Part shown: piece after piece, positions 4,976 to 63,543 of the stretch | How positions within the stretch are numbered: the first letter of the stretch is position 1 | Layout: each line of letters starts with the position of its first letter | Origin: an uncultured Alphaproteobacteria bacterium | GTDB lineage: Bacteria > Pseudomonadota > Alphaproteobacteria > RF32 > CAG-239 | NCBI GenBank assembly: GCA_944391725.1 | Contig: CALXUQ010000001.1 | Location: forward strand, 17,345-81,344 | Length of the DNA stretch: 64,000 bases | Direction: 5' to 3' | Notes under the pieces: generated by a model | Seen by the model: the letters and a program-made list of their open reading frames with translations, nothing else | The model's database searches: none | Told to the model about the DNA's origin: nothing | Position numbers and translations under genes: made by a program

Positions 4976-6655
4976 ATGAATTACGAAAACGACATAACCG
5001 CTGAGGAGCTTTTTCAACTAACCGATGCCCTTTCCCAAGAAAGCGACACCCTCCAAATCATTGACAAGACCATGCAATTAGCGCAACTTGCCTGCAATGC
5101 CGACGGTGTCAGCTATTACACCATTAGCGATGACAATTTCTTGCGTTTGGTATATTCGCACAGCCGCAGTTTAAAGATACACAAACTAGGCTCCGACAAC
5201 AAATATTACACCATTCCGACCTATTTGCCCGACCAAAAAAAAGTTAATCCCAAAACCATTATTGTCACCAGCGCCTTAAACCAAGAGGTAATCAATACCC
5301 CCAATATTTATGCCACTGAGTATGACAATGATGTCTATCTCAAATGGGACGAAGACTTACGTTACAAGACCGTCTCCATGTTAGTCATTCCGATTTTCAA
5401 CTACAAACATCGGATTATCGGCATTGCTCAGTTTATTAATGCCTTAGACATTAACGGCCGCACCATCAGTTTCACCACCAAAGCCCAGGAAAAAGCTCAG
5501 TCAGTTTGTTCTCTGATGGTTCCCTATTTAGAAAATCACAAATTAAGCGAGGACTATGACCAGCTTTTAGAATCCTTCATTGAGGTTTTAGCCCGTGCCA
5601 TTGACGCCAAATCACCTTATACCGGCTCGCATTGTCAAAGAGTTCCGGTCATTGCGCGCATGCTGGCAACTGCTGCCGTTCAGCAAGACCATGGCCCGCT
5701 CAAAAATTTTGAAATGAGCGAAGACGATTGGTACGCACTTAACATTGCCTCTTGGTTACATGACTGTGGTAAAGTCACCACACCGGAATATATTGTTGAT
5801 AAGGCAACCAAGCTGGAAACCATCAACAACCGCATACACGAAATTCGCAATCGTTTTGAAATTTTGCGTCGCGAAGCTCATATTGATTACCTCAAAAAGC
5901 GGCTTAAAAATACTGATACGCAAGAAAAATTGCAAACCGAATTTATCAATAAAGTGCATCAGCTGGAAGATGACTTTGACTTTGTGGCCAATTGCAACAT
6001 CGGCGACACTCCGCTCACCGACAAAGACGTTGCCCGCCTTCAACAAATTGCCCAAATCAAATTCATACGTTATTTCAACCGGATGAAAGGGCTTTCGTGG
6101 GCCGAAAGAGATGCCATTAAAGATGTAGAACTTTTCTCACATCCCAGCTATGAAAATCTGATTCAAAACCGCGATGACCAGGTCAACGCACCTTTCAATC
6201 GGGGCGAACTCTACAATCTGACCATCCGCAGCGGCACTATTAATAAGAAAGAGCGTGAAAAAATTAATGAGCATATCGTAGTAACGATTGATATGTTAAA
6301 GGCACTGCCTTTCCCCAAAGAGCTTTCCAATGTGGTCGAATATGCCGGAGCCCACCACGAGCGGATTGACGGACACGGCTATCCTAACGGTCTGACCGGA
6401 GAGCAGATGTCAATCCCGGCCAAGATAATGGCCATTGCTGATATTTTCGAGGCCCTAACCGCCAACGACCGGCCATATAAAGAGCCCAAAAAACTCTCGA
6501 CCGTCTTGTCGATTATGCAACATATGAAAAACTCCGGCCACATTGATCCGGACTTATATGAAGTGTTCATCAAAAACAAAGTATATGAAGAATATGCTTC
6601 ACAGTACATTTCACCCGAGCAAATCGACGAGATTAAACCGGAGGATTATTTATAA
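4976..6655 (+). CDS. GAF-like sensor plus HD-GYP domain phosphodiesterase (cyclic di-GMP type)
   Basis: HD motif WLHDCGKVTTPEYIVDK and HHERIDGHGYPNGL (the GYP signature). N-terminal ~190 aa look GAF-like. Confidence 0.85.
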   Translation: MNYENDITAEELFQLTDALSQESDTLQIIDKTMQLAQLACNADGVSYYTISDDNFLRLVYSHSRSLKIHKLGSDNKYYTIPTYLPDQKKVNPKTIIVTSALNQEVINTPNIYATEYDNDVYLKWDEDLRYKTVSMLVIPIFNYKHRIIGIAQFINALDINGRTISFTTKAQEKAQSVCSLMVPYLENHKLSEDYDQLLESFIEVLARAIDAKSPYTGSHCQRVPVIARMLATAAVQQDHGPLKNFEMSEDDWYALNIASWLHDCGKVTTPEYIVDKATKLETINNRIHEIRNRFEILRREAHIDYLKKRLKNTDTQEKLQTEFINKVHQLEDDFDFVANCNIGDTPLTDKDVARLQQIAQIKFIRYFNRMKGLSWAERDAIKDVELFSHPSYENLIQNRDDQVNAPFNRGELYNLTIRSGTINKKEREKINEHIVVTIDMLKALPFPKELSNVVEYAGAHHERIDGHGYPNGLTGEQMSIPAKIMAIADIFEALTANDRPYKEPKKLSTVLSIMQHMKNSGHIDPDLYEVFIKNKVYEEYASQYISPEQIDEIKPEDYL

Positions 6656-22426: not shown

Positions 22427-22482
22427 ACTCAACATAAAAAAGAGGCCGACAAGCGACCTCATTTTATGGCGTACCCGGAGGG
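22427..22482. repeat. Direct repeat copy 2 (56 nt), overlapping the 3' end of the intact tRNA-Arg
   Basis: Identical to 22253-22308, with a 174-nt offset. Confidence 0.9.
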
Positions 22483-22543
22483 ATTCGAACCCACGACCCT
22501 TGGCGTCGGAGGCCAATACTCTATCCAACTGAGCTACGGGTAC
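22467..22543 (-). tRNA. tRNA-Arg (anticodon CCG)
   Basis: Reverse complement GTACCCGTAGCTCAGTTGGATAGAGTATTGGCCTCCGACGCCAAGGGTCGTGGGTTCGAATCCCTCCGGGTACGCCA folds as a cloverleaf. 7-bp acceptor, D arm GCTC/GAGT, anticodon stem TTGGC/GCCAA with loop CTCCGAC, T loop TTCGAAT, encoded CCA. Confidence 0.9.
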
Positions 22544-41631: not shown

Positions 41632-41902
41632 TATGTAGATTTTAAATCCTCCGTAAAATCGCTCCAATAAACCCTAGACGAGCACTAAACTCCGGCACTC
41701 CTTAAAGTTCGGATAGTGGAATTAGTAGAGTAGTTTTTAGGGCGAGAAAAGCTTGAGCGTATATAGAAATACGTGCAGTCGATAGTTGGCGATTGGCAAG
41801 CACCTCGTGCGCAGACAGAGCCTTACGTGACGAGCGAGCTTGCGAGATCAACTTTTCGAGACCCGCTAAAACTGCTCTAATAACCCAAAATACGAACTTT
41901 TA
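41632..41902 (+). repeat. Hairpin-unit array C: 5'-truncated type-2 unit (about 41632-41700) plus a complete type-3 unit (41701-41902)
   Basis: The unit starts CTTAAAGTTCGGAT and ends CTCTAATAACCCAAAATACGAACTTTTA. It closely matches 63227-63429, including an identical ~85-nt internal segment. Confidence 0.85.
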
Positions 41903-47259: not shown

Positions 47260-48030
47260 ATGCTAACAAATGCTGAAAATATCTTAATCACCGGAGCAAG
47301 CAGTGGAATTGGGCGAGCTCTGGCGATATATTATGCTCAAAACGGAGCAAAAAATTTGTTTATCTGTGGCCGCAATTTTGAACGCCTTTCTGCCGTTCAG
47401 AACGAATGTACCACATATGGCGCATCAGTTTATCCGTGCATTTTAGATGTTACCGATAGACAAGCCGTCAAAGAATGGATATTTAACTGTGAGCAGGTTG
47501 CACCACTAAACTTAGTCATTGCCAATGCCGGTGTAGCCACTCTGCAAGAAACCCCGGAGCACATCTACAACACTTTTGAGACCAACATTTTTGGGGTTGT
47601 CAATACGGTATTACCGAGCATTGAAGTATATCGGCAAAGAGATAATAAGGCAGATAAGCGCAAAGCCATTGCCATCATCAGTTCGATAGCGGGTTATCAT
47701 GGTATGCCGAGTTGTCCTTCTTATAGTGCCTCTAAAGCCTGCGTTAAAGCTTGGGGCGAAGGCTTAAGAGGAGATTTGAAAGGAGATAAAATCAAAGTTA
47801 GCGTAGTGTGCCCCGGCTTTGTCCGCTCCGGCATTACGGATAAAAATACTTGCCCCATGCCATTTTTCTTAGAAAGTGATAAGGCCGCCGCAATCATTGC
47901 TCAGCGCATAGATAAGAATGTCGGGTTGATAGCATTCCCCTGGCCTACCCGATTTTTTGCATGGTTTGGTTCCATTTTACCCAACCGAATTAGCCAGTTT
48001 GTATACGACCGCCTTCCACATAAAGTTTAG
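47260..48030 (+). CDS. Short-chain dehydrogenase/reductase (SDR)
   Basis: TGASSGIGRA cofactor motif and YSASK active site. Confidence 0.85.
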   Translation: MLTNAENILITGASSGIGRALAIYYAQNGAKNLFICGRNFERLSAVQNECTTYGASVYPCILDVTDRQAVKEWIFNCEQVAPLNLVIANAGVATLQETPEHIYNTFETNIFGVVNTVLPSIEVYRQRDNKADKRKAIAIISSIAGYHGMPSCPSYSASKACVKAWGEGLRGDLKGDKIKVSVVCPGFVRSGITDKNTCPMPFFLESDKAAAIIAQRIDKNVGLIAFPWPTRFFAWFGSILPNRISQFVYDRLPHKV

Positions 48031-48046
48031 ATAATAAGTCCTTAAT

Positions 48047-48076
48047 TAAAACTCCGCTTGGTGCGGAGTTTTTTTG
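48047..48076 (+). terminator. Rho-independent terminator of the SDR gene
   Basis: AACTCCGC-ttggt-GCGGAGTT followed by TTTTTT. Confidence 0.85.
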
Positions 48077-48092
48077 TACCTCAAAAATCCGC

Positions 48093-48120
48093 TTGCAAAT
48101 TTGATAAGATAGGATAAGCT
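48093..48120 (+). promoter_or_regulatory. Predicted promoter of composite module A
   Basis: TTGCAA, 16-nt spacer, TAAGCT, 6 nt before the start of inter-copy conservation (48127). The same hexamers and spacing occur at 62445-62472. Confidence 0.5.
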
Positions 48121-48126
48121 AAAACT

Positions 48127-48296
48127 GCACTCGGGTGAGCCGGGTGCGGAGTGTCGAAACTCCTTATACAGAAAGAAAGCTCCTTGAATGGGGAGCGACC
48201 GGTATAAGTATGTCTTGCGCATAACGAAGAAGGTCGACTGTTTCTGTATACAGTTTCGAACTCCCCGCCTTAGGAAAGCTAGGGCGGTTTCTTTTT
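48127..48296 (+). ncRNA. Conserved structured leader/ncRNA with intrinsic terminator, copy A (unclassified)
   Basis: About 95 percent identical to 62480-62646 outside one helix, which shows compensatory replacement. Ends in CCGCCTTAG-gaaag-CTAGGGCGG plus TTTCTTTTT. Lies 28 nt upstream of the HTH ORF. Confidence 0.65.
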
Positions 48297-48324
48297 AACT
48301 GGAAACCTAAAGGGAGTTTAGAAC

Positions 48325-48573
48325 ATGGGCCATCATCGCAACCGTATTAAAGCTTGGCAAGCCTGTCAAAAAGAGATTGGCGCACAAATCAAAAATATGC
48401 GCTTAGAGTTAGATTTACCTCCACAAATTGCCGCCGAACTTTTGCATATCGGACTAAACCAGCTTTTGTACCTTGAAAACGGCTATATTGGGAAAATGCA
48501 AATTACAGTTCTCCACGCCTTGGCTTATAAATATCACTATAAGTTAAAAATCAGTTTTGAGAAAAAAACATAA
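48325..48573 (+). CDS. XRE-family helix-turn-helix protein (82 aa), copy A
   Basis: AAGGGAG RBS. IGAQIKNMRLELDLPPQIAAELLHIGLNQLLYLENG fits the HTH_XRE pattern. Paralog at 62676..62924. Confidence 0.75.
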   Translation: MGHHRNRIKAWQACQKEIGAQIKNMRLELDLPPQIAAELLHIGLNQLLYLENGYIGKMQITVLHALAYKYHYKLKISFEKKT

Positions 48574-48724
48574 AGTCATCCCTCGTTTTTCAGAGAAAAA
48601 CGTCCAGGGATCTTCCGATTAAAGCGACTAACTCGAAGACCCCTTGACGACTACTAACGTAGTCGAGGGGTGACATTATTTATGTATTAGTCACCCGCTA
48701 GACGAGCTATAAACTCTGGCACTT
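48574..48724 (+). repeat. Conserved structured tail of module A
   Basis: Nearly identical to 62938-63088. Nested hairpins ATCCCT-CGTTTTTC-aga-GAAAAACG-tcc-AGGGAT, TCTTC/GAAGA, CCCCT..GACTAC-taac-GTAGTC..AGGGG and GGGTGAC/GTCACCC. Confidence 0.8.
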
Positions 48725-49066
48725 CTTAAAGGTCGGAGTTTGAGGTTATTAGAGTTCTTTTCAAGGCGAAGAAAATCCTAGCGTATATAGAAATACGTGG
48801 ATTTTCTGAGACCGCAGAAAAGAGCTCTAATAACCCAAAATACGGGCTTTAAAGTTCGGAGAATGAGTCGTATAGAGTAATTTCTAGGGGAGATGACAAT
48901 CCTAGCGTATAATAAGCTCAATCTTTGGCACAAAAAAGTTCGGAGTTTGAGGTTAGTAGAGTTCTTTTCAAGGCGAAGAAAATCCTAGCGTATATAGAAA
49001 TACGTGGATTTTCTGAGACCGCAGAAAAGAGCTCTAATAACCCAAAATACGGGCTTTAAAGTTCGG
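48725..49066 (+). repeat. Hairpin-unit array A: type-1 unit (48725-48853), truncated type-2 unit (48847-48935), type-1 unit (48935-49066)
   Basis: Units share the 5' end CTTAAAG(G/T)TCGGAG, the apex TAGCGTATATAGAAATACGTGG and the 3' end GCTCTAATAACCCAAAATACGGGCTTTAAAG. The two type-1 units are nearly identical. Confidence 0.85.
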
Positions 49067-50921
49067 GGACAGAAGAATGAGTCCTCCTCTCTTCCGCTAC
49101 CGGAGCATCGTCGTTGCGCTCTAACTTCTCGCCTTTGATAACTTGCTTGATTTCATCACCGGTCAAGGTTTCATATTCAATCAAGGCTTCGGCCAAAAGT
49201 TCCCATTCTTTGCGCTTGTCTTGCAAAATCTGCTTGGCTTCATTATAACCCGACATCACCAAAGACTTGATTTCGGCATCCACCAAACGGGCAGTATCTT
49301 CACTCATATTTTTGTTTTGGGTAACCGACTTGCCTAAAAATACTTCACCCGAATTTTCGGCATACAGCACCGGACCGAGCAAATCGCTCATGCCCCATTC
49401 GGTCACCATAGAGCGCGCCAAGTTGGTTGCCGCCGCAATATCCGAAGAAGCTCCGCTGGTCACATCATCTGCCCCAAACTTGATTTCTTCGGCCACACGT
49501 CCACCCATCATAATTGCCAAGCGCGATTTCATTTTCTGCTTCGAATAAGAATATTGGTCTTTTTCGGGCAGTTGTTGCACCATACCCAAAGCCCGTCCCC
49601 GCGGGATAATCGTTGCTTTGTGAATGGGGTCGGTTTCTTTAACATATAGCGAGCAAATCGCATGTCCGGCCTCATGATAAGCAGTGAGTTGTTTTTCTTT
49701 CTCGTCCATCGCCATTGACTTGCGCTCTGAACCCATCATCACCTTATCTTTGGCTTCATCAAAATCCTTAGAAGTAACTTTGTGCTTGTTTTTGCGCGCC
49801 GCTAATAAGGCGGCCTCGTTCACCAAGTTGGCCAAATCTGCCCCCGAAAACCCCGGAGTACCCCGAGCAATTACCGACAAATTAACATCTTTGGCTAAAG
49901 GAACTTTTTTGACATGAACTTTCAAGATTTCTTCCCGACCTTTTTTATCGGGGTTAGAAACCACCACCTGACGGTCAAAACGCCCCGGACGCAGCAAAGC
50001 CGGATCCAAAACATCGGGACGGTTGGTTGCCGCAATCAAAATCACATTTTCATTGTCTTCAAAACCATCCATCTCCACCAACAATTGGTTTAAGGTCTGT
50101 TCGCGTTCATCATTACCGCCGCCGAGTCCGGCTCCACGGTGACGTCCCACCGCATCAATTTCATCAATAAACAACAGGCAAGGAGCATTTTTTTTGGCTT
50201 GAGCAAACATATCCCGCACTCGCGAGGCACCCACACCCACAAACATCTCCACAAAATCTGAACCCGAAATTGAAAAGAACGGCACATTTGCCTCACCGGC
50301 CACGGCTTTAGCAATTAGGGTTTTACCGGTTCCCGGAGGTCCAACCAGCAACACGCCTTTGGGGATTTTGCCGCCCAAACGCTGGAATTTTGCCGGTTCT
50401 TTCAAAAAGTCGATTACCTCTTCGAGTTCTTGTTTGGCCTCATCGGCACCGGCCACATCGTCAAACGTAACTTTTTTGGTATTTTCAATCAACCGCGCAC
50501 GTGATTTTCCAAAACTCATGGCTTTGTTGTTGCCCGAACTGGCCTGACGCATAAAGAAAATCCACACGCCGATTAGCAAAATCATCGGGAACCAAGAAAT
50601 CAGCACTCCCCAAAACGTATTAGCCGAAGTATCTTCCGGACGCGCCTCCACTTTGGCACCGCTATTTCGCAAGGTTTCAATCATGGTCGGGTCATATGGG
50701 GCATAAGTACTAAACTTGGTACCATCGGTTGCCGTACCCATAATATTTGCCCCCTCAATCATCACCTCGCTGATTTGCTTGTTTTCGGCTTTGGTCATAA
50801 AGTCCGAAAAAGCCATTGTCTGATAACCACGACTTTGCGGATTATTGCTAAACATATTCATAATTGCGGAGAGCAGCACAATTGCCACCAGCCAAATAAT
50901 GATACTTTTTCCTGATTTCAT
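49056..50921 (-). CDS. ftsH: ATP-dependent zinc metalloprotease FtsH
   Basis: 621 aa. GPPGTGKT Walker A. HEAGHA zinc motif. Two N-terminal TM segments. Confidence 0.97.
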
Positions 50922-62444: not shown

Positions 62445-62472
62445 TTGCAATTTTTCAAAAATACTTTAAGTT
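62445..62472 (+). promoter_or_regulatory. Predicted promoter of composite module B
   Basis: TTGCAA, 16-nt spacer, TAAGTT, 7 nt before the conserved RNA start (62480). Positionally equivalent to 48093-48120. Confidence 0.5.
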
Positions 62473-62479
62473 AGGAGAT

Positions 62480-62646
62480 GCACTCGGGAGAGCCTGGTGC
62501 GGAGTATCGAAACTCCTCGTATGAAAGAATAGCTCCTTGAATGGGGAGCGACCGGAATAAGTGTGCCTTGCGCATAACGAAGAAGGTCGACTGACATACG
62601 CAGTTTCGAACTCCCCGCCTTAGGAAAGCTAGGGCGGTTTCTTTTT
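62480..62646 (+). ncRNA. Conserved structured leader/ncRNA with intrinsic terminator, copy B (unclassified)
   Basis: Same architecture as 48127-48296. The helix CGTATG (62518-62523) / CATACG (62595-62600) replaces TATACAGAAA/TTTCTGTATA of copy A. Identical terminator at 62615-62646. Confidence 0.65.
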
Positions 62647-62675
62647 AACTAGAAACCTAAAGGGAGTTTAGAGCT

Positions 62676-62924
62676 ATGGGACGTTATAGTAAACGAATTA
62701 AATCTTGGCAGGAATGCCGCAAAGAAATTGGCGAAAAGATTAAGGACATGCGATTAGAGTTGGATTTATCGCCCGAAACCGCCGCCGAAATTTTGCATAT
62801 TGGCACCAAACATTTATGTTGCTTAGAAAATGGCGACATCCGTAAAATGGAAATCTCTTATCTCCATTCTATAGCTTATAAATATAGCTATAAGTTAAAG
62901 ATAAGCTTTGAGAAAAAGAATTAG
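62676..62924 (+). CDS. XRE-family helix-turn-helix protein (82 aa), copy B
   Basis: AAGGGAG RBS. IGEKIKDMRLELDLSPETAAEILHIGTKHLCCLENG. 54 of 82 residues identical to copy A by hand count. Confidence 0.75.
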   Translation: MGRYSKRIKSWQECRKEIGEKIKDMRLELDLSPETAAEILHIGTKHLCCLENGDIRKMEISYLHSIAYKYSYKLKISFEKKN

Positions 62925-62937
62925 AAAAAACAAAAAA

Positions 62938-63088
62938 AGTCATCCCTCGTTTTTCAGAGAAAAACGTCCAGGGATCTTCCGATTAAAGCGACTAACTCGA
63001 AGACCCCTTGACGACTACTAATGTAGTCGAGGGGTGACATTATTTATATATTAGTCACCCGCTAGACGAGTTTTAAACTCTGGCACGG
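62938..63088 (+). repeat. Conserved structured tail of module B
   Basis: Differs from 48574-48724 at only a handful of positions. Confidence 0.8.
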
Positions 63089-63543
63089 CTTAAAGTTCGG
63101 AGAATGAGTCGTATAGAGTGATTTCTTTGGCGATGACAATCCTAGCGTATAAAGAAATACGTGGATTGGCATCTACCCCGTAAAATTGCTCTAATAAACC
63201 AAAATAAACTTTAACCTCAGGCACAGCTTAAAGTTCGGATAGTGGATTTAGTAGAGTAGTTTTTAGGGCGAGAAAAATTTTAGTGTAGATAAACCTACAT
63301 GCAGTCGATAGTTGGCGATTGGCAAGCACCTCGTGCGCAGACAGAGCCTTACGTGACGAGCGAGCTTGCGAGATCAACTTTTCGAGACCCGCTAAAACTG
63401 CTCTAATAAACCGCTAGACGAACTTTAAGGTAAATTGTGATATGTGAGTCGAATAGTAAGAAATTAGGAATTTTGCGACTGAGTGTATAAAGAAATACAC
63501 GATTGGAGCAAAATATCCGACATTTCTGTACTAGTCGACCACA
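63089..63543 (+). repeat. Hairpin-unit array B: type-2 unit (63089-63213), type-3 unit (63227-63429), degenerate type-2-like unit (about 63424-63543)
   Basis: Same conserved termini and apex as arrays A and C. The type-3 unit has 11-nt terminal inverted repeats, CTTAAAGTTCG ... CGAACTTTAAG. Confidence 0.85.

Follow-up and report, generated by a model that had tools for sequence, protein, structure and literature searches.

Riboswitch and attenuator leaders have in common a conserved multi-helix domain, a long-range closing helix that abuts an intrinsic terminator, covarying helices connected by invariant joining bases, and triplets of SD, anti-SD and SD-mimic sequences that could pair in alternative ways. 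All these traits recur in the RNA leader found at positions 48127–48296 of the window (the whole 64-kb stretch of DNA that was analysed), where a covarying structured domain is followed by an intrinsic terminator ahead of an ORF. The leader differs from the described riboswitches and attenuators in that it has no Rfam match, its gene context suggests no ligand, and the gene behind it codes for a tiny regulator rather than for an enzyme or a transporter. It also differs from them by the presence of several paralogous copies per genome, between which whole helices are exchanged.

The immunity RNAs of phage P4 (CI) and of phages P1/P7 (c4) carry variable segments that pair with target sites elsewhere in the transcript. 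Like them, the leader is promoter-proximal and prematurely terminated, precedes regulatory genes and has short hypervariable segments that could confer specificity; its variable arms, in contrast, are each other's pairing partners, and neither arm has an additional copy in the vicinity. There is no Rfam C4 match, and the leader module was not found in the viral contigs, phage genomes and plasmids searched. The terminated riboswitch leaders SreA and SreB of Listeria, which act in trans, offer a possible analogy, in that the short terminated leader could be a stable RNA with a second role, but a search of each locus for trans targets of the variable arms gave none. Two other classes were considered and rejected. 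ToxI-like RNAs of type III toxin-antitoxin systems consist of tandem RNA repeats upstream of an endoribonuclease toxin; here a single leader precedes each ORF, which codes for an HTH protein. A dispersed REP/MITE element was discarded as only two copies are present in 64 kb, both linked to the ORF, and none is gene-independent.

Fremin & Bhatt 2021 (PMC8040213) report that HTH_XRE is the commonest domain coded directly downstream of their candidate structured RNAs from human microbiomes (15 motifs). These candidates resemble the leader in habitat and in the type of downstream gene. The part of the supplement text covered contains neither the leader sequence nor an alphaproteobacterial candidate, and an overlap of the leader with some of its motifs is possible.

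The leader defines an uncatalogued family of structured RNAs of ~170 bases that have their own terminator and stand ahead of small HTH regulator genes. Its hosts are uncultured Alphaproteobacteria, mainly from human-gut metagenomes. The most likely reading, held with moderate confidence, is that this stretch forms the 5' leader of a transcription unit with one gene, coding for a small XRE-type HTH protein, and that it acts in cis on this gene.

Organization of the leader–HTH modules in the window

Two copies of the module, A and B, are present in the forward strand of the window. In both, a promoter-like box is followed by the leader, by an invariant stretch with a putative GGUUUC/GAAACC hairpin and the SD GGGAG, and by an 82-aa ORF. 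The putative promoter of copy A (48093–48120) has a -35 box TTGCAA (48093–48098), a 16-nt spacer and a -10-like TAAGCT (48115–48120), a position that would set the transcript start at ~48127. That of copy B (62445–62472) has the conserved position and the elements TTGCAA (62445–62450) and TAAGTT (62467–62472), also spaced by 16 nt. The box ends 6–7 nt upstream of hairpin P1, and the TTGCA(A/T) box and its position are conserved upstream of all leaders, which would place the 5' end of the RNA at P1. A scan for consensus promoters flagged this putative promoter in neither copy, and past the beginning of the leader it detected no promoter-like site that could serve the ORF. Note that the promoter regions of other ORF subfamilies (L036–L055) carry TTGCAT twice, at -35 and beside the -10 element, with TGCA again at the transcript start ~17–19 nt further on (e.g. 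in L043, ~60 nt before the leader start at 6158). These repeats may be operator half-sites for the HTH proteins.

The leader of copy A starts with the 5'-terminal hairpin P1 (48127–48147; 8 bp and a 5-nt loop). It is followed by a long bipartite stem, composed of P2 and of the hypervariable P3, that closes a junction bearing hairpin P4 and the P5/P6 domain. The P2 5' strand GGAGU-R-UNNNAACU (48148–48161, purine 48153 bulged) pairs with AGUUUCGAACUCC (48252–48264), whose AACUCC(C) part is also complementary to the SD. The P3 arms are UAUACAGAAA (48165–48174) and UUUCUGUAUA (48241–48250), defined by the MFE fold and by the allele series. P4 (GCUCCUU-GAAU-GGGGAGC, 48179–48196) is near-invariant and holds an SD-like GGGGAG. 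P5 (48197–48235) pairs GACC (48197–48200) with GGUC (48232–48235) and encloses conserved AUAAG and AUAAC loops together with the optional hairpin P6 (48209–48213/48219–48223). The intrinsic terminator (48265–48296), detected by a terminator scan in both copies, begins directly after P2 with a 9-bp stem (48265–48273/48279–48287) and ends in a U-tract (48288–48296). The hairpin GGUUUC/GAAACC (48286–48307) spans this U-tract, so that it could form only in read-through RNA; this putative hairpin is invariant in 39 of 39 homologous leaders, is chosen by RNAalifold and shows no covariation. The SD GGGAG (48312–48316) and the ORF (48325–48573) come next, the SD and start codon lying ~25–35 nt beyond the terminator. 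Copy B (62480–62646) has the same P1–P6 layout, with P3 formed by CGUAUG (62518–62523) and CAUACG (62595–62600), a terminator at 62615–62637 with its U-tract at 62638–62646, and the ORF at 62676–62924.

This fold had been proposed by the first-pass annotation, whose quoted strings all lie where it put them: the 5' hairpin (48127–48147), an outer helix GGAGTGTCGAAAC (48148–48160) with GTTTCGAACTCC (48253–48264), the inner helix TATACAGAAA (48165–48174) with TTTCTGTATA (48241–48250), its copy B counterpart CGTATG (62518–62523) with CATACG (62595–62600), GCTCC..GGAGC (48179–48196) and CGACC..GGTCG (48196–48236), in addition to the segments GGGGAG (48190–48195) and CTCCCC (48261–48266). The RNAfold MFE structure of either copy is the claimed fold. 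The leader directly precedes the HTH ORF, the two outer helices differ solely at their bulged purine (G versus A), and the count of ~9 substitutions is recovered as six outside P3 plus three in the A-rich joiner beside it, all as annotated. Folding energies are -76.7 kcal/mol for copy A (48127–48296; z = -6.49) and -71.3 kcal/mol for copy B (62480–62646; z = -5.72), and in each case none of 200 shuffled sequences folds as well. A 24-nt core of the leader occurs twice in the window, against zero occurrences expected by chance. A search with filters off, using a covariance model built from 29 leaders, retrieves only the two copies (195 and 183 bits, the latter for copy B), the next match scoring 14 bits.

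A scan of the whole window at Rfam 15 gathering scores found only a tRNA and nothing on the leader, which also had no match in a permissive scan (E up to 10) of positions 47900–49200. The tRNA is a tRNA-Arg (CCG) at 22467–22543 of the minus strand, the sole Rfam or ARAGORN match in the window. A conserved leader peptide was considered and is unlikely: the frame (48187–48297) that begins with a conserved AUG bordering the P4 loop has 36 codons in copy A, 17 in copy B and 11 or ~40 in other alleles, and such variation between alleles argues against a conserved product.

Two other kinds of repeat lie beside the modules. A block of ~135 nt directly after the HTH stop codon (48575–48710 and 62938–63075) is near-identical between the copies, folds with z = -4.9, has inverted ends GTCATCCCTCG ... 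CGAGGGGTGAC and has no Rfam match. It is present in five related loci, is absent from L008 despite flanks ~100% identical to those of copy B, and is missing or different in other loci; it has the appearance of a palindromic element that inserted independently, or of a structure in the 3' UTR. Imperfect hairpin units of ~130 nt (CTTAAAGTTCGGAG ... GCTCTAATAACCCAAAATA) are found downstream of both modules (48725–49068 and 63089–63430), alone at 41650–41895 between a TPR gene and lptF/G, and in the distant relative L031. They are a dispersed REP/MITE-like family, mostly located between convergent genes. Block and units are separate dispersed elements outside the leader.

Homologous leaders, covariation and exchange of helix alleles

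Homologs of the leader were collected from one MAG labelled 'uncultured Alphaproteobacteria', from look-ups of encoding contigs and from a DNA-pattern scan of metagenome contigs. The MAG carries at least eight copies of the module and the pattern scan added 24 loci, several of them in assemblies labelled human-gut metagenome, for a total of 39 distinct homologous leaders. Every leader precedes an XRE-type HTH ORF of 77–92 aa, and all full-length matches in the 45 sources searched are linked to the ORF and co-oriented with it. The ORFs fall in four subfamilies named after their amino termini (MGHH/MSHN, MNNNFQ, MTKHNN and MILIQ/MTLIQ), between which the proteins are 20–66% identical and the leaders 78–90% identical. 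The HTH family comprises 53 clusters at ≥67% identity and is confined to one lineage; a HMMER scan of 1.8 billion representatives gave 10 proteins at ≤1e-10, several being fragments of the same family. The assignment of the window ORFs to XRE-type HTH proteins is a weak one, suggested by profile similarity. The copy A ORF has no HTH profile match at E up to 0.01. Pfam HTH_25 and HTH_37 stay under their cut-offs on the window ORFs, copy B reaching 21.2 bits with HTH_25 (E = 2.6e-4) for a gathering cut-off of 24.6, and NCBIfam gives weak antitoxin-like HTH matches. The sister subfamily MNNNFQ is above cut-offs (HTH_19, 31.1 versus 30.2; HTH_25, 27.0 versus 24.6), and the family profile matches PDB 4ghj at E = 1.4e-4 and HigA2 at 0.04. 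The AlphaFold model of the HTH protein (pLDDT 64.6) is too low in confidence to be used.

The neighbours of the modules are unrelated housekeeping genes. Copy A lies beside an SDR gene and ftsH, copy B beside grpE and an adh_short (fabG-like) gene that is convergent and truncated where the window ends. In the distant ortholog P0060 the module occupies the same glgA–grpE–module–fabG–fabD site as copy B and its leader is well kept. A second RNA with a 5' hairpin, a long stem closing a multi-branch core, an abutting terminator, an SD and an ORF is found at L047:165–358 (minus strand), transcribed divergently from a normal module. Its similarity to the leader covariance model is faint (30 bits), it folds with z = -7.3, and its ORF (MDLNDRLRALKK...), which is cut by the contig end, is not HTH-like; a search with a 45-aa fragment of this ORF gave one uninformative 42-aa match. 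This RNA may be a distant branch of the leader RNA family.

Covariation was assessed in a plain MAFFT alignment of the 39 distinct leaders using the structure of copy A. Standard pairs occupy 94.9% of the 1779 cells at paired positions, versus 35–48% when partners are slid by 1–3 columns. Two-sided, compensatory changes affect 17 base pairs (198 cells), and the covariation score of 0.320 (0.154 in shuffled alignments) is reached by none of 500 shuffles. The paired cells include 144 G·U against 18 A·C, an excess from which the structure is read as that of a plus strand RNA and not of a DNA palindrome. The homologs thereby bear out the annotated helices: P1, the outer, the swapped, the GCUCC/GGAGC and the CGACC/GGUCG helices as well as the terminator either covary or are kept. 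P1 is paired in 99.4% of cells and varies mostly via G·U intermediates, with G-C/G-U and C-G/U-G/U-A changes. In P2, the three central pairs exist as four compensated alleles (CGA/UCG, AGU/ACU, CAC/GUG and AGC/GCU) and are intact in 31 of the 39 leaders. P4 is paired in 94.5% of cells and five of its seven pairs never vary, while all four pairs of P5 show two-sided changes (GACC/GGUC, GGCC/GGCC, UGGG/CCCA). The terminator stem is 98% paired, four pairs having two-sided changes across at least five alleles; P5 and the terminator each thus have several compensated alleles. Unpaired positions are near-invariant, as are the parts GGAGU/ACUCC and AACU/AGUU of P2. P3 aligns poorly by column and was therefore scored sequence by sequence. 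It displays ~15 different self-complementary alleles, whose own arms form duplexes of -7.8 kcal/mol on average compared to -2.7 kcal/mol with the arms of other alleles. RNAalifold, run on the alignment through the start codon, preferred an invariant CUCC/GGAG fold over P2/P3 owing to this poor alignment of P3 by column. With the exception of recombinant copies, the P2 and P3 alleles are all complementary.

Helix alleles combine as a mosaic that is independent of the ORF subfamily, and comparison of orthologous loci shows a far quicker turnover of the module than of the DNA on either side. The ortholog of copy A in the MAG (L006) has flanks ~95% identical to those of copy A, a different leader type and an ORF of 73% identity. 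Copy B and its counterpart L008 have ~100% identical flanks on both sides and differ in a tract of ~240 bp (62486–62722) that covers the whole leader and the first ~16 codons, a pattern pointing to recent gene conversion between paralogous modules. Faster module turnover and tract exchange indicate that the difference between copies A and B, which the first-pass annotation described as a compensatory helix swap, results from exchange of complete alleles with both arms kept. The complementarity that it reported holds; a local pair of mutations does not account for it, the copy B helix being one of ~15 alleles exchanged as blocks between paralogous modules. As part of the favoured explanation, and with the same moderate confidence, the 'swap' is taken to stem from recombination, which shuffles a stock of self-complementary helix alleles between modules, while selection eliminates any non-pairing combination. 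Besides selection, gene conversion among paralogs may contribute to the high leader identity. In two modules of one MAG the P2 3' strand is split by a MITE-like insertion of ~272 bp with 20-bp terminal inverted repeats GCCCCTAAATCYCCCTTAAA (L004:2656–2927 and the same site of L006); P3 of L006 has since lost two pairs.

A lineage at the grpE–fabG site (L021–L030), recovered from several independent samples in contigs that are in part labelled gut metagenome, has a chimeric leader whose 5' and 3' halves derive from two different alleles. The crossover lies inside the leader and pairing was thereby lost, P2, P3 and P5 being broken. At the 107 columns without variation among the other 33 leaders, these sequences carry 3–8 substitutions (0–2 in leave-one-out controls), which points to relaxed constraint after loss of the fold. 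Despite the broken helices, ORF, terminator and ribosome-binding site are all intact in this lineage. Persistence of the ORF without the fold shows that the fold is not indispensable for gene retention. Four metagenomic leaders (L038, L042, L051 and L055) also have mismatched arms and may be real recombinants or assembly chimeras.

Proposed anti-SD relay and alternative readings

Termination and read-through, as suggested by the arrangement of the sequence elements, would operate as follows. Most transcripts would end at the terminator to yield an RNA of ~165–170 nt, and synthesis of the HTH protein would require read-through. In the read-through RNA, the anti-SD AACUCCC on the 3' side of P2 could pair with GGAGU, an SD mimic on the 5' side of the same helix; the leader would then be folded and the SD free. 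Alternatively, AACUCCC would pair with the true SD GGGAGUU, sequestering it, while the P2 5' strand would form a local hairpin GGAGU/ACUCC. HTH output would then be set by whatever stabilises the conserved P2–P5 core, be it a metabolite, a protein or a physical cue, and the paralogous modules of one genome would respond together because all carry the same core. Such a relay would explain why the P2 bases involved are invariant while the three pairs between them covary freely. Gene context, made of housekeeping genes, points to no ligand or binding partner. The relay, and which of its states prevails, are suggested by thermodynamic modelling. The SD-sequestered arrangement is the MFE fold of the 234-nt read-through RNA of copy A; across read-through folds the SD is mostly paired (probability 0.54–0.97), and of 27 intact leaders, 15 have the SD paired with the P2 3' strand in the MFE structure. 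The complementary segments that could engage in alternative pairing (GGGGAG/CUCCCC, AACUCCC/GGGAGUU and CUCCUU/AAGGGAG) are all invariant, so that covariation lends support to no switch.

One of these segment pairs underlies the terminator/antiterminator switch put forward by the first-pass annotation. The intrinsic terminator is recovered in both copies and the complementarity between the P4 3' strand GGGGAG and CUCCCC is real; the overlap with the terminator is confined to two pairs. According to this reading, which we regard as improbable, GGGGAG would pair with CUCCCC to open the outer helix and the base of the terminator, and read-through would follow. Both strands are invariant in 39 of 39 leaders, and RNAalifold chose GGGG/CCCC in the consensus of the read-through alignment. 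The pairing would displace just two of the nine terminator pairs, both basal C-G, while the terminator alleles vary and the proposed antiterminator stays constant without covarying with them. Opening of P4 would furthermore free CUCCUU, which is complementary to the SD, so that antitermination would be coupled to a translational block.

Equally doubtful is that the terminated RNA of ~165 nt is the main product, acting in trans as a small RNA, and that the HTH gene is expressed by incidental read-through. Its own promoter position, its strong terminator, the stable 5' hairpin and the U-tail would suit such an RNA, as would the A-rich joiner before P4, read from the sequence as (ARN)n-like, and a conservation far higher than that of the ORF. 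The leader, however, is never found without an HTH ORF ~30 nt downstream and has only two copies in the 64-kb window. Between terminator and start codon the sequence varies as little as in the leader itself, which argues for a coupled function in cis. A target search with the variable arms of each locus returned the partner arm and short chance matches, and no candidate nearby.

A more speculative reading, of low probability, is that the leader is a sensor RNA of a new class, be it an orphan riboswitch or a riboregulator that binds a factor, and imposes one common signal on a whole set of fast-diverging XRE regulators. The hypervariable P2 and P3 would be kept distinct within a genome as identity tags against mis-pairing or cross-talk between paralogous transcripts. 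Each of the eight leaders of one MAG (L001–L007 and L009) has a P3 allele of its own, and outside it they are nearly identical; identity tags would explain this pattern.

The same diversity of P3 alleles in one MAG could be taken to favour autoregulation, in which the HTH protein binds the conserved RNA core or its DNA and the variable helices provide paralog specificity. Small XRE proteins are commonly autoregulators. The P2, P3 and P5/P6 types are nevertheless not associated with the ORF subfamily, P5 type (i) occurring in all four, and at orthologous loci leader and ORF are exchanged independently. The same core, moreover, precedes proteins that are just 20% identical, and autoregulation is therefore unlikely.

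Finally, although the genomes carry other palindromic repeats and MITEs, some beside the module, and recombination shuffles the module alleles, a DNA-level palindromic repeat (REP/MITE-like or recombination site) without RNA function is very improbable in view of the G·U excess over A·C (144 versus 18), of an orientation and a spacing that are constant with respect to promoter box, terminator, SD and ORF, of invariant unpaired positions that a bare palindrome would not need, and of the absence of orphan copies in the window and the sources searched.

Significance of the leader family

Poorly known uncultured Alphaproteobacteria of the human gut contribute, with this leader, a family of structured RNAs that is well supported and in which covariation is unusually well documented. 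Its evolutionary pattern is uncommon: leaders of 78–90% identity stand before regulators that have diverged to 20–30%, and whole helices are exchanged between paralogs, even between near-identical strains. The recombinant lineage with broken helices provides a natural loss-of-structure control. The identity-tag reading, if true, would make the variable helices the counterpart, at the RNA level, of incompatibility determinants. Should a metabolite or a protein prove to bind the conserved core, it would define a novel signal by which these bacteria regulate a family of transcription factors.
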